The position numbers and the translations under genes were made by a program. From a virus (lineage: Duplodnaviria > Heunggongvirae > Uroviricota > Caudoviricetes): 64,000 bases of DNA. The notes below the pieces were generated by a model. It was not told where the DNA came from. It searched no databases and worked only from the letters and a program-made list of their open reading frames with translations. Positions 5,854-55,023 of the stretch are shown here, piece by piece. Position 1 is the first letter of the stretch. Each line of letters opens with the position of its first letter. The stretch is from the IMG/VR virus record IMGVR_UViG_3300025896_000021. One strand, 5' to 3'.

Positions 5854-6585
5854 ATGAAAGATACACTACAAAACATCATCCAGTATACAGCTGGTCTTGG
5901 TAACATTGATTTGATTAAAATCACAGGCACTGATACAGAAACACAAATTGCTGCAATTGCAGAAGACAAGAGTGTCGTTATTACAGGTACATTGGCTAAT
6001 CCGCATCCCGAACTCGTCGGTGTGTTTGGTATGCCTAACTTACCAAAGCTAAAAACTATTCTTGGCTTTGATGAATACGATTCTAATGCGGTCATTACAT
6101 TGACACGCAAGGATCGTGATGGAGTTAGCACTCCCGACACAATTCACTTTGCAACAAAAGCAGGTGACTTTGTGAATGACTATCGTTTGATGGCTAAAGC
6201 TATCATTGAAGAAAAAGTCAAGAGCTTTACCTTCAAGGGTACTGGTTGGAATGTTGAATTTGAACCAAGTATTGCTAGCATCTTGCGTTTGAAGAAGCAA
6301 AGTCAAGCGAACAGTGAAGAAAACACATTCGTTACTAAGACAGAGAATGGCGACTTGAAGATTTACTTCGGTGACGTAAGTACTCACAGTGGTAACTTTG
6401 TGTTTCATGCTGGCGTGAACGGTGTACTAACTAAGTCATATCAATGGCCTGTCACAGTTGTGTCTAACATTCTTGGCTTGCCAGGTGATAAGATGTTCCG
6501 CATCAGCGATCAAGGTGCTGCTGAGATTGTTGTGAACAGTGGTATGGCAACATATCGTTACTTGCTTCCTGCTCAATCAAAATGA
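5854..6585 (+). CDS. Hypothetical protein (243 aa)
   Basis: ORF track; RBS AAGGAAA; no recognisable motif. Confidence 0.6.
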   Translation: MKDTLQNIIQYTAGLGNIDLIKITGTDTETQIAAIAEDKSVVITGTLANPHPELVGVFGMPNLPKLKTILGFDEYDSNAVITLTRKDRDGVSTPDTIHFATKAGDFVNDYRLMAKAIIEEKVKSFTFKGTGWNVEFEPSIASILRLKKQSQANSEENTFVTKTENGDLKIYFGDVSTHSGNFVFHAGVNGVLTKSYQWPVTVVSNILGLPGDKMFRISDQGAAEIVVNSGMATYRYLLPAQSK

Positions 6586-6947: not shown

Positions 6948-8497
6948 TGGATCAAGTTAATCTATCAGCAAGTCACAATCCCGATTGGGCATTGTTTTTA
7001 CCCGCAGTCAGTAGTTTCTATATCAGTGGCTTAGGTAAACAGCGTAAGGGTGAACAATACTTTGATGCTGCACGTATTCCTGCACAATTCAACGGCGATG
7101 TTGAGAAACTAAACTTCCTTAACAGCAAAGAAGGTCTATACTACTACAAGTGGGGCTTGTACTCTGCTGGTCACGCTAACTTAGATACAACTGTCAACGA
7201 TCCCAGTGAGTCAATCATTCGTGAACGTGAAGCCGGTACATTCATGCTAGGTGACAGTGGTGGCTTTCAGATTCTTAAAGGTCAATGGCCTGCAGACTGG
7301 AAAGATCCTAACTGTCCTCGTGCTATGTTAAAGCGTAAAGTTGTATTGAACTGGATGGATACGTACATGGACTATGGTATGTGTCTCGATATTCCATCAC
7401 AGTCATTGACTACTTTTGGCATGAAGGATAAGAACGGTGTAAGTCTTCATGGTATCAGTACTATTGAAGAAGCTATTACTGCTACCCATATCAACAATGA
7501 GTACTTTATTCAGAATCGTTCGGGCAAGTGTAAGTTCTTAAACGTATTGCAGGGTCGTAATCACGGTCAGTCGGAAGATTGGTATGCTGAAATGAAAAAG
7601 TACTGCGACCCAAATCAGTATCCTGACAACCACTTTAATGGTTGGGCATTCGGGGGTCAGAACAAGATTGACGTTCACTTGATGCTAACCCGCATGGTTG
7701 ATATCATCCATGACGGACTGTTGCAAGAAGGTAAGCACGACTTGATTCACTGTTTGGGTACAAGTATCTTAGAGTATGCTGTACTCTTTAGTGATATCCA
7801 ACGAGCTATTCGTAAGTATCACAACCCAAAACTTCAAATCACGTTTGATTGTGCTAGCCCATTCTATAGTGCAGCTAAAGGTCTTGCGTACTTCAACACG
7901 AACATTCAGCACAACAAGAAATGGTCATACAGTATGGAAAAGACTGCGGAGAAAAAGTCGTATGCAAACGACACTCGCAAGTTCCGTGATGCTGTGTTAG
8001 CTGAAGGTATCCATAAGATGTTTACTGATAGTCCGGTGACTGATAAACTAGTGCTTAAGGACCTTTGCTATCGTGGTCAAGGTTTCATTGGTCAGCATGG
8101 TAAAGAAACAAAGACCAGCTGGGATACTCTGAGCTATACCTTACTGCAAAGCCATAATGTGTACACTCACATGTCAGCAGTGCAAGAAGCCAATCGTCAA
8201 TATGATTTGGGCATTGTCCCAAAGATGTTGATGAACGAACAATTTGATAGGGTGTTGTTCAAGGATGTTATTGACGAAGTTTTCTCTAAGAAGAACAAGC
8301 AAGAAGCCATCGAATTGATTAACGCTAATTCTAGACTTTGGATGCAATTCCAATCAGGTAGTCAAGGTATCAGTGGTAAACGTACTGTCAACGCAATGAC
8401 TATGTTTGACCAATTATTTGAAACAGCATCAGAACCCGAAGTTGATGAAGTTATAGAAGACAGTGATGATGCGATTAATGAAGCATTGGGTGAATAA
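6947..8497 (+). CDS. dpdA: DpdA-like DNA-guanine transglycosylase (TGT superfamily, 516 aa)
   Basis: Contains FMLGDSGGFQILKGQW, matching the TGT catalytic-Asp motif (LxxDSGGFQ). There is no CxCxxC zinc site, and the protein is larger than typical phage DpdA. It sits with folE, queD and queE. Confidence 0.7.
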   Translation: MDQVNLSASHNPDWALFLPAVSSFYISGLGKQRKGEQYFDAARIPAQFNGDVEKLNFLNSKEGLYYYKWGLYSAGHANLDTTVNDPSESIIREREAGTFMLGDSGGFQILKGQWPADWKDPNCPRAMLKRKVVLNWMDTYMDYGMCLDIPSQSLTTFGMKDKNGVSLHGISTIEEAITATHINNEYFIQNRSGKCKFLNVLQGRNHGQSEDWYAEMKKYCDPNQYPDNHFNGWAFGGQNKIDVHLMLTRMVDIIHDGLLQEGKHDLIHCLGTSILEYAVLFSDIQRAIRKYHNPKLQITFDCASPFYSAAKGLAYFNTNIQHNKKWSYSMEKTAEKKSYANDTRKFRDAVLAEGIHKMFTDSPVTDKLVLKDLCYRGQGFIGQHGKETKTSWDTLSYTLLQSHNVYTHMSAVQEANRQYDLGIVPKMLMNEQFDRVLFKDVIDEVFSKKNKQEAIELINANSRLWMQFQSGSQGISGKRTVNAMTMFDQLFETASEPEVDEVIEDSDDAINEALGE

Positions 8498-8570: not shown

Positions 8571-9017
8571 ATGCAAAGAGAACAAGCACTGACCGAAAAG
8601 CGTCAACGAATTAGACAAGAAGCCAAACGAACTATTTGGGTTACGTTTCGTAAAGAAGGCATTCATTGCTATCCAGCTGCAGGTCATCAACCTGATCTTG
8701 CAACTGGTGATGAGTTCGATGTGAGCTTTCTTGGCACACCACATCGACATATTTTTCACTTCACTGTGGGTATTCAAGTAAACCACAATGAACGTGACAT
8801 TGAGTTTATTCAATTCAAACGTTGGCTTGAGAAATTATATCAAGGCACGCTTGTATTGAATGACAAAAGCTGTGAAACAATTAGTGATGATCTCTATGAG
8901 GCAATTGCTAGTCGCTATCCAGAGCGTGACATTCAAATCTCTGTCGCAGAAGACGGTGAGAACGGATGCACTGTATATTACAACACAACTAAACCTATTA
9001 ACAACCTCGCTATCTAA
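8571..9017 (+). CDS. Hypothetical protein (148 aa)
   Basis: ORF track; possible extended -10 (TGTATAAT) upstream. Confidence 0.5.
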   Translation: MQREQALTEKRQRIRQEAKRTIWVTFRKEGIHCYPAAGHQPDLATGDEFDVSFLGTPHRHIFHFTVGIQVNHNERDIEFIQFKRWLEKLYQGTLVLNDKSCETISDDLYEAIASRYPERDIQISVAEDGENGCTVYYNTTKPINNLAI

Positions 9018-9026
9018 GGAAACAAA

Positions 9027-9233
9027 ATGGCAAAACTAAACCTTCAACCTAACCCACGTGTCTATCAACTCTTTGAGGACCTCGAAGCCTATAAGGAGTT
9101 CTGTGTGGATTACGGTTATAAGTTTGATGAATCAACCCTGTATGATATGCGCAGTTTCGCATATCGTCAACATACCAAGCAGCTTGCTGGTAAGTGGCCT
9201 AAGGATTCATGGGAAGACGCTATCCGTCGATGA
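9027..9233 (+). CDS. Hypothetical protein (68 aa)
   Basis: ORF track; RBS AAGGAAA. Confidence 0.45.
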   Translation: MAKLNLQPNPRVYQLFEDLEAYKEFCVDYGYKFDESTLYDMRSFAYRQHTKQLAGKWPKDSWEDAIRR

Positions 9234-10000
9234 AAGCAGTGTTAGTCACTGGGGGTTTCGACCCTCTGCACTCAGGTCACATTGAATATTTCAATGCCGC
9301 TAGAGAACTCGGCGATAAACTAATCGTCGGGTTGAACAGTGACGAATGGTTGACCCGTAAAAAAGGTCAACCTTTTATGCCTTGGGAAGAACGTGCAACT
9401 ATCGTATCATCATTGTATAATGTGGATAGAGTGATTAACTTTGATGATACCGACGACACTGCCAATGATGCAATACGTAAGGCTAGAAAAATCTTTCCTA
9501 ATCACGAAATCATCTTTGCTAACGGCGGAGACCGAACCAAAGAAAATATTCCAGAAATGGAATTACTTACTCAATACTTAAATTTAAAATTTGTATTTGG
9601 TGTAGGTGGGGAGAGCAAACTAAACAGTAGTAGTTGGATTCTGCGTGAGTGGAAGCAGCCGAAAACATTGCGCTCATGGGGATACTATTGTATACTACAT
9701 GATGTTGATGGATGCAAAGTTAAAGAACTCACCATTGAACCCGGTCAAAGTTTGAGTATGCAACGACATTTCAAACGACATGAGTTCTGGCATGTTACTG
9801 AAGGTGAATGTTACATTGATTCTCAACTGGCTAGTGGTTATGTGTTACCTACACAAAAACTAGTAAAGTTTAGTCAGGTTCAAATTCCATTAGGTGATTG
9901 GCATAAACTAACTAATCCATTTGACAAGCCATGTCGTATTGTAGAGATTCAATACGGCGAAGAGTGTGTAGAAGAAGACATTGAAAGAAAAGATGCGTAA
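9230..10000 (+). CDS. HxGH nucleotidyltransferase (RfaE domain II / cytidylyltransferase-like) fused to a C-terminal cupin
   Basis: Start ATG at 9230 overlaps the upstream stop (ATGA). GGFDPLHSGH ... LIVGLNSDEW ... RVINFDDTDDT resembles heptose-1-P adenylyltransferase and TagD. The C-terminal part has a cupin-like pattern (mannose-6-P isomerase type). Confidence 0.7.
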   Translation: MKAVLVTGGFDPLHSGHIEYFNAARELGDKLIVGLNSDEWLTRKKGQPFMPWEERATIVSSLYNVDRVINFDDTDDTANDAIRKARKIFPNHEIIFANGGDRTKENIPEMELLTQYLNLKFVFGVGGESKLNSSSWILREWKQPKTLRSWGYYCILHDVDGCKVKELTIEPGQSLSMQRHFKRHEFWHVTEGECYIDSQLASGYVLPTQKLVKFSQVQIPLGDWHKLTNPFDKPCRIVEIQYGEECVEEDIERKDA

Positions 10001-20386: not shown

Positions 20387-20415
20387 TTGACATTTAATGA
20401 ATTTGGTGCTATAAT
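20387..20415 (+). promoter_or_regulatory. Early sigma70-type promoter, TTGACA-17-TATAAT family
   Basis: TTGACAtttaatgaatttggtgcTATAAT, about 33 nt upstream of the 20448 ATG. Confidence 0.7.
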
Positions 20416-37125: not shown

Positions 37126-38334
37126 ATGAATATGAACGAAGACCATAATTTAATAGACCATTGCAACTTTTGTGGCAACAGTAAAGACGCTGTAAAGAAA
37201 CTAATCGTCGGTGAGGGCATTGCTATTTGCAATGACTGTGTTGATCTATGCCAAACATTAATTGAAGATGAATCTTCGGTTAGTGTAGCAGAACCTCCTG
37301 AGCCAGTACATGATCCAGAAGCTATTAAAGAGTATTTGGATAAACATGTTATTGGACAAGACGAAGCCAAGATGGTTCTTAGCGTAGCTATTGCTAATCA
37401 TTATAAACGAATCAACAATCCACCAAAAGATATTGAAATTCAAAAGGGTAATGTTCTCATTGTAGGTCCTACTGGTAGTGGTAAAACTCTATTAGCTAAG
37501 ACAGCAGCGAAATATCTCAAAGTGCCCTTTGTCGTAGCAGATGCGACTAGTTTGACCGAAGCAGGTTATGTAGGTGATGACGTTGAGAGCATGATTAATA
37601 TGCTTATCAATGCAGCCGATGGCGATGTTAAACTTGCAGAGCGTGGTATCATCTTTATTGATGAAATTGACAAGATCGCCCGCAAAGGTGAAAGTGCTAG
37701 TATCACACGTGACGTATCGGGCGAAGGTGTACAGCAAGCACTACTCAAATTAGTAGAAGGTACGACTTGTCGTATCCCTGCACAAGGTGGACGTAAGCAT
37801 CCGGGTGGTGAAATGTCAGAAATTAACACCAAAGACATTCTCTTTATCGCAGGTGGAGCCTTTGTTGGATTGAAAGATGTTATTGCCACTCGTATGAATG
37901 GCACTAGCATTGGGTTTCATGCTTCTATCAGTGATAGCAAAGTTGAAGGTGAACTAACAAAGGTTAGTCCTGATGATTTAACTAGATATGGAATGATTCC
38001 TGAGTTTATCGGACGTTTCACTACAACAGTAAGCATTGGTGAATTGAATAAAGAGCAATTGGTACATATTCTCACTGATGTTAAGAACAACTACATTAGT
38101 CAGTATAAGTATTTGTTAAGTTTGGACAACATCCAGCTATCATTTACTACTGATGCTTTAGAACAGATGGCAGAAAACACACTGCTATTGAAGACTGGTG
38201 CTAGAGGCTTACATACAGAAATTGAACGTGTGCTTATGTGCCACATGTTTCACACTAGGTTGTATAAGAAAAACAACATAACAATTCTGTTAATTGATAA
38301 AGAACGGGTAATAAACCCGGCTCCTATCATTTAA
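37126..38334 (+). CDS. clpX: ClpX-like AAA+ unfoldase
   Basis: N-terminal C4 zinc-binding domain (CNFCGNS...CNDC). Walker [17 protein letters not shown], Walker [11 protein letters not shown] and the GYVG pore loop are present. Confidence 0.85.
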
Positions 38335-38428: not shown

Positions 38429-40330
38429 ATGAGCAAAGTCATCGGTATCGACTTAGGTACCACAAATTCATGCGTAGCCGTCATCGAAAACGGAATCCCC
38501 AAAATAATTGAAAACAGCGAAGGTACTAGAACCACGCCAAGTATCGTAGCATATGCTAACGGTGAAATCTTGGTAGGTGCAAGTGCTAAACGTCAAGCAG
38601 TTACAAACCCCAAAAACACAATTTATGCTAGCAAGCGATTGATCGGACGTAAGTTTGATGAACAAGCTGTACAAAAAGACATTGACTTGATGCCATACAC
38701 TATTATCAAGAATGAGAATGGTGATGCTTGGGTTCAAGTCAACGAAGATAAGCTAGCGCCCCCGCAAATCTCTGCCGAAGTCTTGCGTAAGATGAAGAAG
38801 ACCGCAGAAGATTATCTTGGTCACGAAGTAACTCAAGCAGTTATCACAGTGCCAGCATACTTTAATGATAGTCAACGTCAAGCAACTAAGGATGCAGGTC
38901 GTATTGCTGGATTAGAAGTGTTGCGTATTATCAATGAACCAACTGCGGCAGCACTTGCGTACGGTGTTGACAAGCAAGACAAGAAAGACCGCAAGATTGC
39001 AGTCTATGACTTGGGTGGTGGTACGTTTGACGTATCTATCATTGAAATTGCAGACGTTGATGGTGATAAACAGTTTGAAGTATTGTCTACGAATGGTGAT
39101 ACATTCTTAGGTGGTGAAGACTTTGACCAACGCATTATGGATTTCTTGGTTGATACATTCAAACAAGAACAGGGCATTGACTTGAAAAAGGATATGCTTG
39201 CATTGCAACGTTTGAAAGAAGCGGCAGAAAAAGCTAAGATTGAATTGTCTAGTTCTGCAAGCACTAGTGTTAACTTGCCTTACGTTACTGCGGATGCAAG
39301 TGGTCCAAAGCATTTGAACATTACAATCAATCGTTCTAAACTAGAAAGTCTAGTTGAAGAATTGATCCTACGTAGCATTGAGCCATGCAAGATTGCTATG
39401 AAAGATGCAGGCGTTACTAACGCAGACATTGACGAGGTTATCCTCGTCGGTGGTATGACACGTATGCCTAAAGTTGTTGAAGCAGTTGAGAAATTCTTCG
39501 GCAAGGCACCTCGTAAAGATGTTAACCCAGACGAAGCAGTAGCAGCAGGCGCAGCTATTCAAGGTGATGTGCTAGGTGGTGGACGTAAAGACGTATTGTT
39601 GCTTGATGTGACTCCACTAAGTCTTGGTATCGAGACTATGGGCGGTGTAATGAGTAAGTTGATTCAAAAGAACACAACTATTCCTACTAAAGCTAGTCAA
39701 ACATTCAGTACAGCGGAAGATAATCAACCTGCAGTTACTATCAAAGCATTTCAAGGTGAACGTGAGCTAGCACAGTTCAATAAACTATTGGGTGAGTTCA
39801 ATCTTGAAGGTATTGTTCCAGCAAGACGCGGTATGCCTCAGATTGAAGTTACATTGGACATCGATGCTAACGGTATCTTGAGTGTAAGTGCTAAAGATAA
39901 GAACACTGGCAAAGAAAATAAGATCACTATCAAAGCTAATAGTGGATTGACCGAAGCTGAAATTCAAGCAATGGTTAAAGACGCTGAACTTAATGCAGAA
40001 TCTGATAAGAAGGCACGTGAGTTAATTGAAGCACGTAACAGTGCAGAAGGTACACTACGTACATTCAAGGAAGACTTTGACAAGTATGGTGACAAAGTAA
40101 CTGCCGAAGAGAAAACACTAGCGGAAGACGCTATCAAAGCATTGGAAGAAGCAGTTAAGGGTGAAGACGTATCTGTTATCCAAGAAGCTATTCCCAAACT
40201 GTACGAAGCAATTGGACCAATTACTAAGGTGAAACAGGATGCAGAGGCAGCAGAGCAATCATCTGCTACTGAAGCACCGGTTGATGATAACGTAGTTGAT
40301 GCAGAAGTGAAGGAGAGTAAGAATGTCTAA
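38429..40330 (+). CDS. dnaK: DnaK (Hsp70) chaperone
   Basis: [22 protein letters not shown] and the rest of the sequence read as a canonical full-length Hsp70 (633 aa). Confidence 0.95.
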
Positions 40331-44024: not shown

Positions 44025-44615
44025 ATGAGTTTAGTTCCAATCGTAATCGAAACAACCAGCAAGGGTGAGCGCAGTTATGACATTTATAGTCGTTTGTTGC
44101 GTGACCGAGTCATTTTGCTCGAAGGCGAAGTGCATGATCAAATGGCAAATCTGATTGTTGCCCAGCTATTGTTCTTGGAAAGTGAAGACAGTGGCAAAGA
44201 CATTTCAATGTACATTAATAGTCCGGGTGGATCAGTGACTGCGGGTATGGCTATCTATGATGCAATGCAGTTTATCAAGCCCGATGTACAAACAATCGTT
44301 ATGGGTCAAGCCTGTTCAATGGGCAGCTTGCTTGCAACATCAGGTGCTAAAGGTAAGCGCATGATGTTGCCAAACGCACGTCACATGATCCATCAACCAT
44401 CGGGCGGTAGTCGCGGTCAAGCAACTGACATGCTGATTCAGGTTACTGAGATTTTGGCTATGAAGAAAGTGCTGACCCAAATCTATGTTGACCACAACAG
44501 TACCGGTAAAACATTCGACCAGTTCAGTGCTGACATGGAACGTGACAATTTCATGAGTGCAAAAGCTGCACTAGATTACGGACTCATTGATAGCATTCTG
44601 ACTAAACGAATTTAA
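44025..44615 (+). CDS. clpP: ClpP serine protease
   Basis: [17 protein letters not shown] ... [11 protein letters not shown] ... HQPSGG match the ClpP catalytic Ser/His context. Confidence 0.9.
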
Positions 44616-49156: not shown

Positions 49157-49185
49157 TTGACAGTAAATGGATGGTATGATATACT
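49157..49185 (+). promoter_or_regulatory. Promoter TTGACA-17-TATACT
   Basis: Immediately follows the terminator; about 30 nt upstream of the HD-domain gene. Confidence 0.6.
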
Positions 49186-49215: not shown

Positions 49216-49659
49216 ATGAAAAAAGGTCACATGTTAGCTACAATGCTTGTCATTGTTACAAACGCACATGACGGTCAATTTGACAAAGGCGGAGCTCCTT
49301 ACATTCTGCACCCTCTGAAAGTTATGCATTACCTGAAAAGTGATGACGAGGAACTGATGTGCATGGCTCTTGGTCATGATGTAATTGAAGACACTTCGGT
49401 GACTTACAAGGACCTTCGTGATGCTGGTATCAGTGAAAGAGTTATTGATGGTATCTGGAGACTGACCAAGCAACCCGGTCAAACTCTTGAGGAATACAAA
49501 GAAGGTGTCTTTGCGAACGTAGATGCAATGCGTGTCAAGATGGCTGATTTACGTCACAACACTGATATCCGTCGATTGAAAGGTGTGACTGAAAAAGACA
49601 TTGCTAGGATGGCAAAGTATCATACTTTTTACATGGAAATCAAAGCAAGATTGGGTTGA
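49216..49659 (+). CDS. HD-domain hydrolase, RelA/SpoT-type (small alarmone hydrolase-like)
   Basis: H...HD motif: ALGHDVIEDT resembles the (p)ppGpp hydrolase domain of Rel/SpoT/Mesh1. Confidence 0.65.
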   Translation: MKKGHMLATMLVIVTNAHDGQFDKGGAPYILHPLKVMHYLKSDDEELMCMALGHDVIEDTSVTYKDLRDAGISERVIDGIWRLTKQPGQTLEEYKEGVFANVDAMRVKMADLRHNTDIRRLKGVTEKDIARMAKYHTFYMEIKARLG

Positions 49660-49925
49660 GAATATGCACTATAGAATGACTACATACGAACGTATAGCCG
49701 AAAAACTACTGAAGGGTCAGCCAAAAGCTAAACCTTTCGGTATGTTGTGCGGCAACAAGTTTTTGACAGGGACCAAAAGCCTGCATCGGACAAAGCAGTC
49801 AAGAGTTTGGAGACTTTTCTGGCGATTAAAGTTTGACAGAAAAAGTAAAGTCTGATATAATAAGATAAATAAACATACAAGCAACGAGATAGACTCCGCG
49901 CTGACATTATTGAAAGGATTTTTCA

Positions 49926-50951
49926 ATGTCAAAAAAGTACGATACCCTAGTCCTCATTGGACGCTTTCAACCATTTCACACTGCTCACTTACTATTGGCA
50001 GGTCGTGCAACTGCACTAGCTGACAATTTGATCTTTATCTGCGGTAGTGCTAATCAGCCCCGCACTTATAAGAATCCGTTTACCTTTGATGAACGTAGGC
50101 AAATGATTAAGTATGCCACAAATGGCTTCAGTGGTACACTAACAGTTAGTGTAGAACCTAACCCAGATACAATTTACAACGACCAAGCATGGGCAGTTCG
50201 TGTACAGGCATTGGTTGCTAAACACACTAAGCCCGGTGACAAAATTGGTATCATCGGTCACAGAAAAGACCCAAGCTCATTCTACTTAGACATGTTCCCT
50301 CAATGGGGCTTTGAAGAAGTTGAATTGCTAGAGCCACTTGATGCTACTGACATTCGCAGTTTGTATTTCAAGCGTGATGTGAATATGAATTTTATCCGTA
50401 ACGTTGTTCCTCCTACTACTTTTGACTTCTTGGAACAATTCAAAGAGTCCAAAGAATACGAACAAGTTATCCGTGAGCGTGAGTTTTTGATTGAGAACGC
50501 AAAACAATATTCTAGCTTGAAATACCCTCCTATTTTCTCTACTGCGGATGCTGTCGTGATTCAATCAGGGCATGTACTAATGATTAAACGCCGTGCTGAA
50601 CCAGGTCGTGGCTTGTGGGCATTGCCCGGTGGTTATGTTAACGCAAACACTGACAAGACTGTATTGGATGCGGCTATTCGTGAATTGCGTGAAGAAACAT
50701 TAATCAAAGTGCCCGGTCCTGTACTGCGCGGTAGTATTGTTGACAATCGTGTGTTTGATGCTGTGGATCGCTCACCACGTGGTCGTATTATCACACACTG
50801 TTTCAAAATCGTATTGCCCGACGGTGAGTTGCCAAAAGTAAAAGGCAGTGACGATGCTGAAAAAGCACGATGGGTTCCTATCGCAGAGGTGCGTAGTGAA
50901 GAATGTTTTGAAGACCACTATGACATGGTCATGTGGGCAGTTGGAGCTTGA
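49926..50951 (+). CDS. natV: Bifunctional NMN adenylyltransferase / Nudix hydrolase (NatV-like)
   Basis: N-terminal LIGRFQPFHTAH (HxGH nucleotidyltransferase); C-terminal Nudix box GGYVNANTDKTVLDAAIRELREETLI. Confidence 0.85.
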   Translation: MSKKYDTLVLIGRFQPFHTAHLLLAGRATALADNLIFICGSANQPRTYKNPFTFDERRQMIKYATNGFSGTLTVSVEPNPDTIYNDQAWAVRVQALVAKHTKPGDKIGIIGHRKDPSSFYLDMFPQWGFEEVELLEPLDATDIRSLYFKRDVNMNFIRNVVPPTTFDFLEQFKESKEYEQVIREREFLIENAKQYSSLKYPPIFSTADAVVIQSGHVLMIKRRAEPGRGLWALPGGYVNANTDKTVLDAAIRELREETLIKVPGPVLRGSIVDNRVFDAVDRSPRGRIITHCFKIVLPDGELPKVKGSDDAEKARWVPIAEVRSEECFEDHYDMVMWAVGA

Positions 50952-50952
50952 T

Positions 50953-51177
50953 ATGAACGAACGAATTAAAGAACTTGCTGAACAGGCTGGCGCTGGCCGA
51001 AGGGCAGGCATTAGCGGGCTTGTATTTCGTAACAATGAATTAGAAAAGTTCGCCGAGTTGATTGTTCGGGAATGTTTGAGCATTGTTGAACCTACAGAAG
51101 ACAGTGGTGACGAATGGTGCGTTACTCTTAAAGGAACTGCACAAGAGATTAAAGAACATTTCGGAGTTGAAGAATGA
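50953..51177 (+). CDS. Small protein of the MNERIKELAEQAG...KFAELIVREC...HFGVEE family (74 aa)
   Basis: Trimmed to the MNERIKELAEQAG ATG just after the natV stop. Confidence 0.5.
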   Translation: MNERIKELAEQAGAGRRAGISGLVFRNNELEKFAELIVRECLSIVEPTEDSGDEWCVTLKGTAQEIKEHFGVEE

Positions 51178-51344
51178 TTATATTTGATAAAGAGTATATT
51201 GGTGAATCCGTTGTAGATATGGATCGTGATGTTAATGAATTCTTTTCTGATTCATTGATTGACGATTTTGATATTCCGCAAGATGACAACGGTATCATGC
51301 AAGGTAGCTTTCGTGTAACAGTACAGTGGATTCCAGCAAAATGA
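51174..51344 (+). CDS. Hypothetical acidic protein (about 56 aa)
   Basis: Read by hand; ATGA-coupled to both neighbours. Confidence 0.35.
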   Translation: MIIFDKEYIGESVVDMDRDVNEFFSDSLIDDFDIPQDDNGIMQGSFRVTVQWIPAK

Positions 51345-51538
51345 CAACACAACATTACAATCGTTTAGAAAACGGACCAATGGACGAGATTGACGCTGCA
51401 ATTTGGAGCGGAGACTTGTTCCACAATCGTGCAAACATTGCTGAATTCCGTGAACAGATGGCACGATGGGAACGAGGTTTGCAATCGTGTGAAGATATAC
51501 TAAGTGAAGTACCGGAGAGGTCGAATGATGGCAAATGA
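51341..51538 (+). CDS. Hypothetical protein (about 65 aa)
   Basis: Internal ATG of the track ORF 51326, overlapping the upstream stop. Confidence 0.4.
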   Translation: MTTQHYNRLENGPMDEIDAAIWSGDLFHNRANIAEFREQMARWERGLQSCEDILSEVPERSNDGK

Positions 51539-52106
51539 AACAATTGTTACAGTAGCAGACAAACTAAAAATGGCGGCAGAAGCCGGAATTATATTTCCAC
51601 ACTATACAAACACAGATAACCCAATTGACTTTCCAATGAATATCGATAAACTAAAACATACAAAAGGTAACCTACTTGACCTAGCAGAAGCAGGTGAGTT
51701 TGATATTATTGTGCAGGGCTGTAACTGCTTTAACACAATGGGCGGCGGCATTGCCCGAGAGATTGCAGAACGCTATCCCATGTGTCAAGAAATTGACCGA
51801 CTAACCGAACGTGGCGAACATATGAAGTTAGGCAATTGGACAGAGTTTGATTCTGGTAAATTCACTATCATCAACGCCTACACTCAATACAATATGAGTC
51901 AAGGTACAGATGTTTTTGAGTATGTGGCATTTGAATTGATTTTGCTAAAACTCATTCATGTGTATGGTGACAAGCGAATCGGCTTACCCTACATTGGCAT
52001 GGGACTTGCAGGTGGTGATAAGGATGCTATCATTAGTATGATTGAAGCATTTGCATACGGTGTTGCTGCCAAAGGTGGCTCCGTTACCCTAGTAGAATTT
52101 GCATGA
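51525..52106 (+). CDS. Macro-domain protein (ADP-ribose binding/processing)
   Basis: FDIIVQGCNCFNTMGGGIAREIAERYP matches macro-domain glycine-rich motif 1. Confidence 0.65.
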   Translation: MMANETIVTVADKLKMAAEAGIIFPHYTNTDNPIDFPMNIDKLKHTKGNLLDLAEAGEFDIIVQGCNCFNTMGGGIAREIAERYPMCQEIDRLTERGEHMKLGNWTEFDSGKFTIINAYTQYNMSQGTDVFEYVAFELILLKLIHVYGDKRIGLPYIGMGLAGGDKDAIISMIEAFAYGVAAKGGSVTLVEFA

Positions 52107-52333
52107 ACAGCAAGCAACGTCGGCAATCAGAACGAAATCATCCACATACAATCGTGTTGAAACAACCTAACAACATGCGATATTTTGAATGGGATGATCA
52201 TCTATACACACTGAAAGTTTGGTGCAATAAGAATGCACAAGCAGGTTGGAAACAACAAGAAAGTTTTCAAGCTGCTAACTTTAGATTTACTAAACACAAG
52301 GACGCAATGATATTTGCCCTAAAGTGGTTGTAA
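52103..52333 (+). CDS. Hypothetical protein (76 aa)
   Basis: ORF track. Confidence 0.4.
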   Translation: MNSKQRRQSERNHPHTIVLKQPNNMRYFEWDDHLYTLKVWCNKNAQAGWKQQESFQAANFRFTKHKDAMIFALKWL

Positions 52334-52337
52334 AAGG

Positions 52338-52366
52338 TTGACATAAAAATGGTTTTATGTTATACT
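52338..52366 (+). promoter_or_regulatory. Promoter TTGACA-17-TATACT
   Basis: Upstream of nadV. Confidence 0.55.
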
Positions 52367-52422
52367 GTTATTAAGTCCTAGAGATAGACTCTAGGCAATT
52401 TAGAAAATAAAGGAACTTTATT

Positions 52423-53856
52423 ATGAAACTCGCAAAAAACATTATCCTCAATTCGGATAGCTACAAATACAGTCAATTCAACCAGTATCCAGCAGGTACT
52501 GAGTATGTTTACTCTTACATTGAATCGCGCGGCGGACAATGGAACGATACAGTCTATTTTGGACTGCAAGCATTTATTAAAGAGTATCTCACCACCCCAA
52601 TTACAAAGGAAGACATTGATGTTGCAGAAGCCATTATCACAGCGCACGGCGAACCGTTCAATCGAGCGGGTTGGGACTATATCTTGGAAGCCCATGGTGG
52701 ACGACTCCCCGTCGTTATCAAGAGCGCCCCAGAGGGACTTATCATCCCCACAAAAAATGTGTTGGCTACTATCGAAAACACCGATCCAAAATGCTTCTGG
52801 CTTACAAGTTTCCTAGAAACTGCATTGCTCCGCGCAATTTGGTATCCTACTACTGTAGCAACTAATAGCTACGAATCTAAAAAAATTATCCTTGCTGCAT
52901 TGGAGAAAACAGGTGACCCTACTCTTATCGATTTTAAGTTGCATGACTTTGGCTCTCGCGGTGTTTCTTCTATGGAGTCAGCGGGACTCGGCGGAGCAGC
53001 CCACCTCATTAATTTTATGGGGTCGGACACTGTATCCGCTTTACTTGTTGCTCGGGAGTATTACAATGCTGATATCGCTGGATTTAGTATCCCAGCTATG
53101 GAGCACTCTACAGTAACATCATGGGGAAAAGAAAATGAAGTTGACGCATACCGCAACATGGTCAAACAAAATGCCAAGCAAGGTGGCATCTTTGCAGCAG
53201 TCTCGGACAGCTACGACATTTACCAAGCCTGCGAACTCTGGGGCACCGTACTCAAACAAGACGTCCTTGACAGTGGCGCAACTTTGGTCGTCCGCCCAGA
53301 CTCGGGTAACCCCAGTGATGTGGTTGTAAAGTGTTTGTACATTCTTGAAAAACATTTTGGTTCTACTACTAATGCTAAAGGCTACCGTGTACTAAACCCA
53401 GCAGTGCGTATCCTTCAGGGTGATGGTATCAATCACGCTAGCATCCACAGCATTTTGTTCTGTATGGAAATCGCAGGGTTCTCAGCAGACAACGTGGCGT
53501 TCGGTCAAGGTGGTGCATTGCTGCAACAAGTAAACCGTGACACAATGCAGTGGGCAATGAAGTGCAGTGCAGTTGGTATTCGTGAATGGGTAGAAGACGG
53601 TGATCAAGGGTCAGGATGGAAACTTACCTGGCGCGATGTGTACAAAGACCCCGTCACTGACAGTGGCAAGCGTAGCAAGCGTGGTCGTGTTACACTTTGG
53701 GAATCAGGTGGCGAATATCAATCATCGGTTACTATGCCAATGGGATGGACTGATAAAGGTACGGTTTGGACTGAGGTTCTTGAAGAAGTCTACCGTGATG
53801 GTGCTCTTGTAAAAGAAATCACCTTTGAAGAAGTTCGGGCAAACGCTCGTAAATAA
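52423..53856 (+). CDS. nadV: Nicotinamide phosphoribosyltransferase (NadV/NAMPT)
   Basis: N-terminal NIILNSDSYKYSQF and overall NAMPT-like sequence (477 aa). Confidence 0.85.
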   Translation: MKLAKNIILNSDSYKYSQFNQYPAGTEYVYSYIESRGGQWNDTVYFGLQAFIKEYLTTPITKEDIDVAEAIITAHGEPFNRAGWDYILEAHGGRLPVVIKSAPEGLIIPTKNVLATIENTDPKCFWLTSFLETALLRAIWYPTTVATNSYESKKIILAALEKTGDPTLIDFKLHDFGSRGVSSMESAGLGGAAHLINFMGSDTVSALLVAREYYNADIAGFSIPAMEHSTVTSWGKENEVDAYRNMVKQNAKQGGIFAAVSDSYDIYQACELWGTVLKQDVLDSGATLVVRPDSGNPSDVVVKCLYILEKHFGSTTNAKGYRVLNPAVRILQGDGINHASIHSILFCMEIAGFSADNVAFGQGGALLQQVNRDTMQWAMKCSAVGIREWVEDGDQGSGWKLTWRDVYKDPVTDSGKRSKRGRVTLWESGGEYQSSVTMPMGWTDKGTVWTEVLEEVYRDGALVKEITFEEVRANARK

Positions 53857-53860
53857 AACA

Positions 53861-53898
53861 ATGAGGGCCTTGACAAGCCCTCATTTTTATAGTATACT
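53861..53898 (+). terminator. Terminator hairpin ATGAGGGC...GCCCTCAT plus T5, with an embedded TTGACA-17-TATACT promoter
   Basis: 8-bp stem. The loop contains TTGACA, and TATACT lies 17 nt downstream, so the element doubles as a promoter. Confidence 0.5.
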
Positions 53899-53931: not shown

Positions 53932-55023
53932 ATGAGCTATTTTCTGAAATCTGGTAACACGTTCCGAGTGTCTTCAAAAGAGGCAATGGACTTGCATGAC
54001 TATTTGCCCGCCGGCAATTACACCATCAAAGCAGATATGATGGGTAATCTGTTCCTAGAACAGATTGAGTCCTTTGAGATTAAGGGCAAGCGTTACGGCG
54101 ATCTGGACAGTAACACTGACCGTATCATCAGTACCTTCATGTCACGTGCAGCTAGCACTGGCGTAATGCTGACTGGTGAAAAAGGTTCTGGTAAAAGTTT
54201 GCTTGCCAAAGCATTGAGTATCCAAACTGCTACGATGGGTATCCCAACTATTGTTATCAATCAGCCGTGGACTGGTGATAAGTTCAATCAACTTATTCAA
54301 TCTATTGAGCAACCTTGTATGGTGTTGTTTGACGAGTTTGAAAAAGTCTACAGTTCTGATGACCAAGAAGCAATGTTGACATTGTTGGATGGTGTGTTCC
54401 CAAGCAAGAAATTGTTTGTGATTACATGTAACGACAAATGGCGGGTTGACAGTCACATGCGTAATCGTCCTGGTCGTATTTTCTACATGCTGGACTACAA
54501 GGGTTTGACACAGGATTTCATCATTGAATACTGTAATGACAACTTGAACGACAAGAGCCATATTGAACGTATCTGTGCTATCACAAGTTTGTTCAGCCAA
54601 TTCAACTTTGATATGCTTAAGGCATTGGTTGAAGAAATGAATCGTTACAACGAACCTCCAGAAGCTGCATTGCGTATGCTTAACGTCAAGCCAGAGTTTG
54701 ACAGTGGTAACAAATACAATGTGTCGTTGACAATCAAGGGTGTGCCAGTTGAACCCGACAAGCTCAATAACAAAGAATGGAAAGGTAATCCTTTGCAAGC
54801 TGAAATTGAAATCGGCTACAAGCGTATGCTTCCACCTGACCCCACTGATGACGAGGATGATGCTGATAATAACTACGATTGGGAAGAAGCACACTTTGTT
54901 CCAGCTGACTTGCAAAAGATTGATCCACAATCTGGTACATTCATCTTCATGAACAAAGAAGGTGAATCAGTGACTTTGACCAAAGTCAAAGAAAAGACTT
55001 ACAGCTACATGGATGCATTCTGA
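53932..55023 (+). CDS. AAA+ ATPase (363 aa)
   Basis: Walker A GEKGSGKS; Walker B MVLFDEFEK. Confidence 0.6.
   Translation: MSYFLKSGNTFRVSSKEAMDLHDYLPAGNYTIKADMMGNLFLEQIESFEIKGKRYGDLDSNTDRIISTFMSRAASTGVMLTGEKGSGKSLLAKALSIQTATMGIPTIVINQPWTGDKFNQLIQSIEQPCMVLFDEFEKVYSSDDQEAMLTLLDGVFPSKKLFVITCNDKWRVDSHMRNRPGRIFYMLDYKGLTQDFIIEYCNDNLNDKSHIERICAITSLFSQFNFDMLKALVEEMNRYNEPPEAALRMLNVKPEFDSGNKYNVSLTIKGVPVEPDKLNNKEWKGNPLQAEIEIGYKRMLPPDPTDDEDDADNNYDWEEAHFVPADLQKIDPQSGTFIFMNKEGESVTLTKVKEKTYSYMDAF

Follow-up and report, generated by a model that had tools for sequence, protein, structure and literature searches.

A predicted NARP2 cassette with a Poa1p-like macrodomain gene, next to a putative small alarmone hydrolase gene, in an uncultured jumbo phage

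Layout and predicted transcription units of the locus

We analysed a 64,000-nt stretch of viral DNA (Duplodnaviria; Heunggongvirae; Uroviricota; Caudoviricetes; IMG/VR record IMGVR_UViG_3300025896_000021), hereafter the window. Four genes on its + strand, between positions 49216 and 53856, encode a putative HD-domain alarmone hydrolase, the adenylyltransferase–Nudix protein NatV, a macrodomain protein and the phosphoribosyltransferase NadV (Table 1). NadV and NatV correspond to the two enzymes of NARP2, a published phage counter-defence based on nicotinamide adenine dinucleotide (NAD+) synthesis, and the macro gene is a recurrent partner of this pair. A preliminary description of the same DNA, made from its letters alone, had placed the four genes correctly, as the list of open reading frames (ORFs) confirms, and had left out four small ORFs in the NatV–NadV interval as well as the strong sigma-70-type promoter that precedes each unit. 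Identical DNA is present in three metagenome assemblies (one from JGI and two from ENA), so the locus is no assembly artefact.

The window contains 16 exact matches to the pattern TTGACA-N17-TATAMT, where chance would give 0.04, and every one of them is on the + strand (starts at 20387, 22079, 27659, 27928, 28215, 30008, 31520, 45876, 49157, 49833, 52338, 53870, 55068, 55936, 56294 and 56597), and the extended spacer TTAAATGGTTTTGGGTA is common to many of them. Four of the 16 sites fall exactly in the gaps before the HD, NatV, NadV and AAA+ ATPase genes, while the ORFs from NatV to orf76 abut or overlap with no strong promoter among them. Given this layout, the predicted transcription units are HD alone, NatV-orf74-orf56-orf65-macro-orf76, NadV alone, and the AAA+ ATPase gene. 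The pattern represents a strong phage-specific early-promoter consensus, which could be used for mapping early transcription units.

Table 1. Genes and predicted regulatory features at the locus, in window coordinates
Feature	Position	Strand	Description
Promoter (predicted)	49157..49185	+	Early-type, TTGACA-17-TATACT, TG-extended; upstream of the HD gene
HD	49216..49659	+	Putative HD-domain small alarmone hydrolase, 147 aa, Aph1/PbcSpo type; phrog_990, 7SMG, PVP-SE1 gp220
Promoter (predicted)	49833..49861	+	Perfect consensus TTGACA-17-TATAAT, TG-extended; upstream of NatV, within the 266-nt HD–NatV gap
NatV	49926..50951	+	Predicted bifunctional nicotinamide mononucleotide (NMN) adenylyltransferase (N-terminal) and Nudix hydrolase (C-terminal), NadM-Nudix type, 341 aa; Cytidylyltransferase-like and NUDIX domains
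orf74	50953..51177	+	Small protein of a multi-copy paralogous family (tblastn)
orf56	51174..51344	+	Small protein, phrog_11659 (family of unknown function); carried by few relatives
orf65	51341..51538	+	Small protein; frequently just upstream of the macro gene in relatives
macro	51525..52106	+	Macro-domain protein, 193 aa, variable N-terminal ~42 aa and Poa1p/TARG1/DarG-class core; phrog_335; AlphaFold2 and Foldseek; BLAST
orf76	52103..52333	+	Small basic protein, final gene of the NatV operon; start overlaps the macro stop codon
Promoter (predicted)	52338..52366	+	TTGACA-17-TATACT, TG-extended; upstream of NadV
NadV	52423..53856	+	Predicted nicotinamide phosphoribosyltransferase (NAMPT), 477 aa; NAMPT_N and NAPRTase domains
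Terminator-like hairpin	53860..53885	+	Immediately 3' of NadV; overlaps the next promoter (53870-53898)
AAA+ ATPase	53932..55023	+	Classical clade, phrog_2376; own promoter; 3' of NadV

NadV and NatV match the NARP2 enzymes

NadV matches the profile PRK09198 with an E-value of 7e-184 and, among PDB entries, bacterial NAMPT (7YQO, E 2e-162) and human NAMPT (E 1e-121), with the motifs KLHDFG, EHST (containing the autophosphorylated His) and RPDSG all conserved. NatV matches the PRK05379 models (E 3e-110) as well as the NadM-Nudix proteins of Synechocystis (2QJO, E 7e-81) and Francisella (2QJT, E 2e-63), and its GRFQPFHTAH follows the GRFQPFHxxH pattern. The two components by which NARP2 is recognized, a NAMPT with its catalytic motifs and an NMN adenylyltransferase in the same phage, are both present and lie 1.5 kb apart. 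By homology, we assign the pair to NARP2 with high confidence, which agrees with the preliminary description, where it had been taken for this published counter-defence.

NARP2 was described for NadV and NatV of Vibrio phage KVP40 (Osterman et al., bioRxiv 10.1101/2024.02.11.579819). It was shown to cancel the Thoeris, DSR2 and aRES defences, overproduces NAD+ irrespective of an active defence system, and is costly through its consumption of phosphoribosyl pyrophosphate (PRPP). The window encodes the same two enzymes, a NAMPT and an NMN adenylyltransferase–Nudix protein, from neighbouring genes of a large phage, and its NadV is 44% identical to that of KVP40. It differs in that the macro gene and the four small ORFs are contained in its NatV operon, whereas KVP40 has no macro gene within 9 kb of nadV, and in that the Nudix box of its NatV is a conserved variant.

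In this box (residues ~232-258), RELREE is kept, and the first Glu is replaced within a conserved 2-aa insertion, NAxTDK (PGGYVNAxTDK), the whole NatV subtype following the pattern PGG[YF][VL]NAxTD[KR]..RELREET. Two other NatV subtypes of the same phage clade keep the canonical box. Conservation of the insertion throughout the subtype points to a variant under selection and not to decay. The NadM-Nudix relatives of NatV are annotated as ADP-ribose (ADPR) pyrophosphatases. Separately, in a JGI copy of the locus (3300006805; L001 7504-8529, where L numbers denote the loci compared here) that is otherwise identical, NatV carries E133 changed to a stop codon together with W231R, and the gene caller split it into genes of 132 and 208 aa; the nonsense change is due to a sequencing error or else marks a natural knockout.

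The macro protein belongs to a family holding both Adpp and T4 Tk.4

Using the ATG at 51525 chosen by the gene callers as the start (a GTG at 51504 is the alternative), the macro protein scores 17.9 bits against Pfam Macro, under the cutoff of 22, and matches phrog_335 with an E-value of 1.9e-38. Pfam alone under-calls both the macro and the HD protein, which fall below their cutoffs. The AlphaFold2 model has a pLDDT of 82, with the N-terminal 42 residues disordered, and matches the macrodomains of DarG, Poa1p and TARG1 with a probability of 1.0 in Foldseek; the nearest PDB sequence is Poa1p.

Two published proteins bear on its function. The Poa1p-like macro protein Adpp of Vibrio phage Gary turns ADPR-1''-phosphate (ADPR-1''P), the product of the RES-domain defence aRES, into ADPR, and is carried by about 15% of NARP1 operons (Osterman et al. 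2026, bioRxiv 10.64898/2026.01.28.702374), while a T4 transposon screen found tk.4, which encodes AdfM, to be needed against DarTG2 (bioRxiv 10.1101/2025.11.20.689424). By BLAST, the window protein is 42% identical to the NARP1-AP macro of phiAbaA1 (E 6e-28) and 36% to that of phage EM (E 3e-23; sequences from Table S1, bioRxiv 10.64898/2026.01.28.702374), 33% to T4 Tk.4 (E 2e-18) and 31% to the validated Gary Adpp (E 5e-15), and Tk.4 and Gary Adpp are 35% identical to each other. The motifs N-C-F..MG.GIA, K-L-G, N.Y(T/G)Q(Y/F) and P.IG.G..GG are common to all of them, and all lack the catalytic Lys of DarG and TARG1. Judged by sequence, the macro protein belongs to a single Poa1p-like phage family, phrog_335, which holds both Adpp and T4 Tk.4/AdfM.

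Residues N67, G73, G75 and Y119-T120-Q121 are invariant. N67 corresponds to the active-site Asn of DarG (N22), and Gln121, within the invariant Y-T-Q, occupies the position of the catalytic Lys (K80 in T. aquaticus DarG, K78 in PhiKZ AdfM). The missing Lys excludes DarG-like chemistry but not AdfM function, because T4 AdfM also lacks it; its use as evidence against an anti-DarT role was withdrawn for this reason. In the window clade, Lys replaces the Trp of GGDW. The core of the window protein is acidic, with an isoelectric point (pI) of 4.9, like the NARP-linked macros, whereas DarG macros are basic and DNA-binding. We attempted to separate Poa1p-like from DarG-like members, but in the PDB sequence search, the profile search and Foldseek alike, the E-values for the two types differed by no more than one order of magnitude. 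A neighbour-joining tree of 105 macro sequences did not resolve the deep nodes, and the window clade could not be placed nearer to Adpp or to AdfM. Sequence and fold do not, on this evidence, separate Adpp from AdfM activity.

Compared with NARP1-AP of phage Gary, the window macro protein has the same Poa1p-like family and motifs and is likewise embedded in an NAD+ reconstitution operon. However, its partner pathway is NARP2 (NadV and NatV): neither Adps nor Namat was found in the 64-kb window, so that the arrangement characteristic of NARP1-AP, a macro gene within two genes of an Adps and Namat pair, is absent from it. As NARP2 needs no ADPR substrate, the published rationale is not directly transferable. 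The window protein further differs from Gary Adpp in having Gln for His at the position of Poa1p H23. From T4 Tk.4, with which it shares family, motifs and the lack of the DarG catalytic Lys, it differs in its extra variable N-terminal segment and its more acidic character; moreover, tk.4 is flanked by vs and tk in the T4 genome, away from any NAD+ genes, unlike the window macro gene.

The macro gene is a recurrent partner of NadV and NatV

The genomic context was examined in a NadV-centred sample of 80 IMG/VR loci, forming 63 clusters at 95% NadV identity, and in a macro-centred sample of 80 diverse members of the macro family. In 29 of the 63 clusters, NatV and NadV enclose the macro gene, and in 3-4 others it is nearby in another gene order (e.g. 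macro-NadV-NatV or NadV-AAA-NatV-orf65-macro). Three rearranged orders keep it together with NatV or NadV, and its presence tracks the NatV subtype. Within the macro-centred sample, 23 of the 80 members are found within 6 kb of NadV or Namat; nine lie in NARP1 operons and 11 adjoin a 43-44% identical NadV in other large phages. Two unrelated large phages have wider clusters. In L118 (2568-12058) the order is NatV-like - SLOG (YspA) - NadV - NADAR - macro, with SIR2 and a full PRPP synthetase gene further along, and in L115 (1977-6453) a NatV-like gene is followed at a distance by NadV - NAD kinase - macro. The macro gene is linked to NadV in at least two unrelated phage lineages. Pseudomonas phage EM was considered as a further, independent NadV–macro pair and rejected; Pfam identifies its genes as Adps and Namat, which makes it a NARP1-AP case, in agreement with Table S1 of the aRES paper.

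Some loci hold additional genes of interest. In a 360-kb relative (L007), a nucleoside 2-deoxyribosyltransferase-like gene (8923-9402; PF15891, E 1e-36) lies between macro and NadV. A jumbo-phage contig of 368 kb (L109) has two macro genes, at 6001-6459 and 7191-7631, about 730 nt apart with one ORF between them, one of the Adpp/Tk.4 family and the other DarG-like (VNTVNCVGVMGKGIA, pI 9.2), which hints that the two types are not redundant. T4-like phages carry the macro family without NAD+ genes nearby. When chimeric macro+NadV and HD+NatV queries were used, the best-matching cultured-phage records contained no true NadV–macro or HD–NatV adjacency.

The predicted co-transcription with NatV, the recurrence in 29 of 63 clusters and the link to NadV in at least two unrelated lineages together favour an Adpp-like role, or a link to NAD+ metabolism, for the macro protein. 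The macro gene to which the preliminary description had drawn attention is therefore a real and recurrent partner of NadV and NatV. While all components come from described families, the NatV-macro-NadV arrangement was previously undescribed, and the wider NAD+ gene clusters of L118 and L115 are likewise new arrangements of known families. The aRES study is the only paper we found that deals with both NARP2 and macro domains, and the macro genes in it occur in NARP1 operons only.

The HD protein resembles (p)ppApp-specific small alarmone hydrolases

The HD protein contains the motif GHDVIEDT, matches phrog_990 with an E-value of 4.9e-58, and has as its best structural relative the PDB entry 7SMG, a '(p)ppApp hydrolase' (E 2.7e-24). 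It is a lone RSH-type hydrolase domain, matching only the hydrolase part of Rel/SpoT models, without a synthetase domain. The protein in 7SMG, Aph1, is (p)ppApp-specific with the signature D24, R96, D116, R119, K133 and Y134, and its D24R/R119A mutant gains ppGpp activity. Five of these six residues are kept in the HD protein (D23, D117, R120, K134 and Y135), while R96 is replaced by Gly97. R96 is the sole signature residue away from the active site, and the small alarmone hydrolase (SAH) gp220 of Salmonella phage PVP-SE1, which is 58% identical to the HD protein and the only match in that genome, shows the same pattern. The equivalents of D24 and R119, which decide between ppApp and ppGpp, are kept as Asp23 and Arg120, where B. 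subtilis Rel has Arg and Thr; (p)ppGpp hydrolases typically combine a guanine-contacting Arg at the position of TtRel R43 with a residue other than Arg at that of Aph1 R119, a combination not found in the HD protein. The preliminary description had predicted (p)ppGpp hydrolysis from the HDVIEDT signature. This signature is present, but it is accompanied by the (p)ppApp-specificity residues of Aph1 instead of guanine-binding ones, and judged by these residues the prediction needs correcting.

The PVP-SE1 SAH neutralised all five toxic small alarmone synthetases (toxSAS) tested, and ATfaRel, an SAH of the PbcSpo subfamily, reverses the pyrophosphorylation of tRNA 3'-CCA ends, restoring aminoacylation. 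We propose with moderate confidence that the HD protein is an adenosine 3'-pyrophosphohydrolase that acts on (p)ppApp and counters toxSAS toxins, and it may possibly act on tRNA 3'-A-pyrophosphate as well. Like Aph1 of Bacteroides caccae and the phage SAHs (PVP-SE1 gp220, PbcSpo), it is a single-domain protein of about 147 aa. Besides the change of R96 to Gly, it differs from Aph1 in its setting: Aph1 is an immunity protein adjoining a MuF-fused (p)ppApp synthetase toxin in a temperate phage, whereas the window HD gene stands alone in a lytic-type jumbo phage, adjoining rIIB and NARP2.

The HD gene was found in five of the 80 NadV-centred loci. Conversely, NatV or NadV was found within 6 kb, variously arranged, in about 28% of 80 HD-centred loci, and about 65% have neither; frequently the HD gene flanks rIIA/rIIB instead. 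Among cultured phages, several large ones encode both HD and NatV, but the two are not neighbours there. The HD gene is thus a separate unit with its own promoter, only loosely linked to the NARP2 cassette.

Small ORFs, neighbouring genes and the wider window

Among the small ORFs of the NatV operon, orf74 (MNERIKELAEQAG...) belongs to a family of ~70-aa proteins with at least five paralogues per related locus by tblastn (sites at L005 3622-4368 and 12596-13133, and L007 4753-5270, 6373-6821 and 7280-7495); it has no match in Pfam or PHROG. Copies of orf65 with 76-88% identity precede the macro gene in L007, L013, L024 and L071, and weak homologues of orf76 were found in L024 and L071. The AAA+ ATPase gene is a conserved NadV neighbour in the clade, adjoining NadV in most of the related loci; in L024 it separates NadV from NatV.

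Searching 50,697 phage records, megablast of the window returned no match and distant blastn gave gene-sized patches only; there is no cultured close relative at the DNA level. Contigs carrying close homologues of the window macro protein reach about 360 kb, which points to a jumbo-phage lineage. Further genes of the window code for a family-B DNA polymerase, an ATP-dependent ligase, Hsp70, ClpX, ClpP and rIIA/rIIB. ClpX, a full-length Hsp70/DnaK (E 8e-255) and ClpP (37126-38334, 38429-40330 and 44025-44615) lie within ~8 kb and form an unusual chaperone/protease set for a phage. Positions 1-2000 have a G+C content of 50%, compared with about 40% elsewhere. The protein encoded there combines TIG, Ig-like and glycine-rich domains and may be a fibre or decoration protein with a different origin. 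The 64-kb window was also searched for further genes related to NAD+ or ADPR (Prs, SIR2, NADAR, SLOG, NAD kinase, a second macro gene and aRad1), none of which was found, and PADLOC and tRNA scans of the window added nothing beyond a weak DarG match of the macro protein.

Proposed roles and alternative explanations

From the family memberships, the catalytic and specificity residues, the operon layout and the recurrence of the arrangement, we infer the enzymatic activities, the macro–Nudix coupling and the counter-defence roles that follow. In the model we prefer, with a probability of roughly 0.55, an uncultured jumbo phage (about 360 kb) carries three early-gene modules under host-type promoters, namely NARP2, an Adpp-type macro protein feeding the Nudix domain, and an HD protein countering toxSAS toxins. 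NadV would combine nicotinamide with PRPP to give NMN, and the N-terminal domain of NatV would adenylylate NMN to NAD+, so that NAD+ is restored after its destruction by host NADase defences (TIR, SIR2, SEFIR, RES). The macro protein would act as a C1''-ADP-ribose hydrolase, its most likely job being the conversion of ADPR-1''P, as produced by RES-type NAD+ phosphorylases, to ADPR. We further propose, with moderate confidence, that the Nudix domain of NatV would then cleave this ADPR to AMP and ribose-5-phosphate, which would feed PRPP synthesis and thereby lessen the PRPP drain that makes NARP2 costly. Independently of NAD+, the HD protein would remove the 3'-pyrophosphate from adenosine nucleotides ((p)ppApp), and probably also from pyrophosphorylated tRNA 3' ends, which would neutralise toxSAS-type toxins. 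A broader anti-depletion locus, going beyond NAD+ resynthesis, had been suggested in the preliminary description. The macro part of this idea stands in so far as the family includes a validated ADPR-1''P phosphatase; the HD part needs correcting, as this protein is separate and its validated relatives counter toxSAS toxins, a defence unrelated to NAD+.

Several observations weigh against this model. The main objection comes from aRES, which NARP2 cancels by itself, leaving no need for the macro protein there. The macro gene is also absent from 26 of the 63 clusters (about 40%), in 20 of which the NatV–NadV gap is <=300 nt, and no macro gene adjoins NadV in KVP40 or the other cultured phages whose NadV is most similar. 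At the residue level, Gln64 is near-invariant in the window clade, where all other aligned family members and Poa1p (H23) have His, and the Nudix box of NatV is without its first canonical Glu. A PRPP synthetase gene was not among the genes found in the window. In addition, T4 Tk.4/AdfM shares the family and motifs of the macro protein and protects against DarTG2, so the activity of the family is not uniquely that of an ADPR-1''P phosphatase. As for the HD gene, it is absent from most related cassettes, and in the closest relative (L176, IMGVR_UViG_3300013285_000009, on the same contig as L024) a 94%-identical HD gene lies directly upstream of rIIA, >12 kb from the NARP2 cassette, which suggests that it moves around within the early region.

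The kinship of the macro protein with both Adpp and AdfM allows a more general reading, to which we give tentative credence: macros of the Adpp/Tk.4 family may be general C1''-ADP-ribose hydrolases, effective against both RES phosphorolysis and DarT2. Its basis is the identity between the validated Adpp and the validated AdfM, given above, with all motifs in common, and if it is correct, the Adpp and AdfM roles are both possible. Macro–Nudix recycling (ADPR-1''P to ADPR, then to AMP and ribose-5-phosphate, then to PRPP) would in that case form a previously undescribed branch of NARP2, rendering this PRPP-hungry pathway largely self-feeding, a 'NARP2-AP'.

The main rival to the preferred model, which we regard as rather doubtful, is that the macro protein is an AdfM-type anti-DarT2 factor that removes ADP-ribose from thymidines of the phage DNA and lies beside NAD+ genes through the clustering of counter-defence genes. 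T4 requires Tk.4 for growth on DarTG2 hosts, the top Foldseek match of the macro protein is the DarG macrodomain, NCBIfam and PADLOC both return weak DarG matches, and the catalytic Asn is kept as N67. Against these stands the linkage of the macro gene to NatV/NadV and to Namat/Adps, which recurs in several unrelated lineages and resists rearrangement, as well as its predicted co-transcription with NatV. The acidic core differs from the basic DarG macros, and the presence in L109 of this macro type next to a separate DarG-like macro suggests different jobs for the two. The lack of the catalytic Lys (Gln121) is at most a weak point here, T4 AdfM being without it too.

It is unlikely that the locus is an auxiliary metabolic module, in which NAD+ is boosted for a very large phage, macro and Nudix domains clear ADP-ribose by-products, and the HD protein damps the host alarmone response. 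Such a role would agree with the production of excess NAD+ by NARP2 whether or not a defence is active, with NAD+ salvage genes being typical of jumbo phages, and with the NAD kinase, PRPP synthetase, SIR2 or nucleoside deoxyribosyltransferase genes that relatives add nearby. However, counter-defence phenotypes have been obtained experimentally for NARP2, Adpp-family macros and phage SAHs alike, the genes are found among rIIA/rIIB and other early accessory genes, and the DNA ligase of the window is ATP-dependent, which leaves no obvious NAD+-hungry phage enzyme in view. Least probable is the anti-signalling role suggested in the preliminary description, with the macro protein destroying ADPR-derived messengers (1''-2' or 1''-3' glycocyclic ADPR (gcADPR), His-ADPR) and the HD protein degrading (p)ppGpp: although these messengers are all substituted at C1'' of ADP-ribose, presumably the position attacked by macrodomains of the Poa1p/TARG1/DarG class, no family member is reported to cleave gcADPR or His-ADPR, the documented activities being ADPR-1''P dephosphorylation and DarTG2 protection, and the HD protein has Asp and Arg at the ppApp-specificity positions, where ppGpp hydrolases have Arg and a small residue.

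Significance

NAD+ depletion is among the commonest bacterial anti-phage strategies, and the published phage answers to it are NARP1, NARP1-AP, NARP2 and NARP3. Our comparison shows that an Adpp-type macro gene is a frequent insert of NARP2 cassettes too, in dozens of related and unrelated metagenomic phages, where the published rationale for Adpp, the supply of ADPR to NARP1, does not apply. This raises the questions of whether the macro protein and the Nudix domain let NARP2 recycle the products of NAD+ breakdown, and whether a single macrodomain family gives protection from aRES as well as DarTG2. A further outcome is a new label for a widespread phage 'metal-dependent phosphohydrolase', now a predicted adenosine-specific 3'-pyrophosphohydrolase, which would probably target toxSAS defences.

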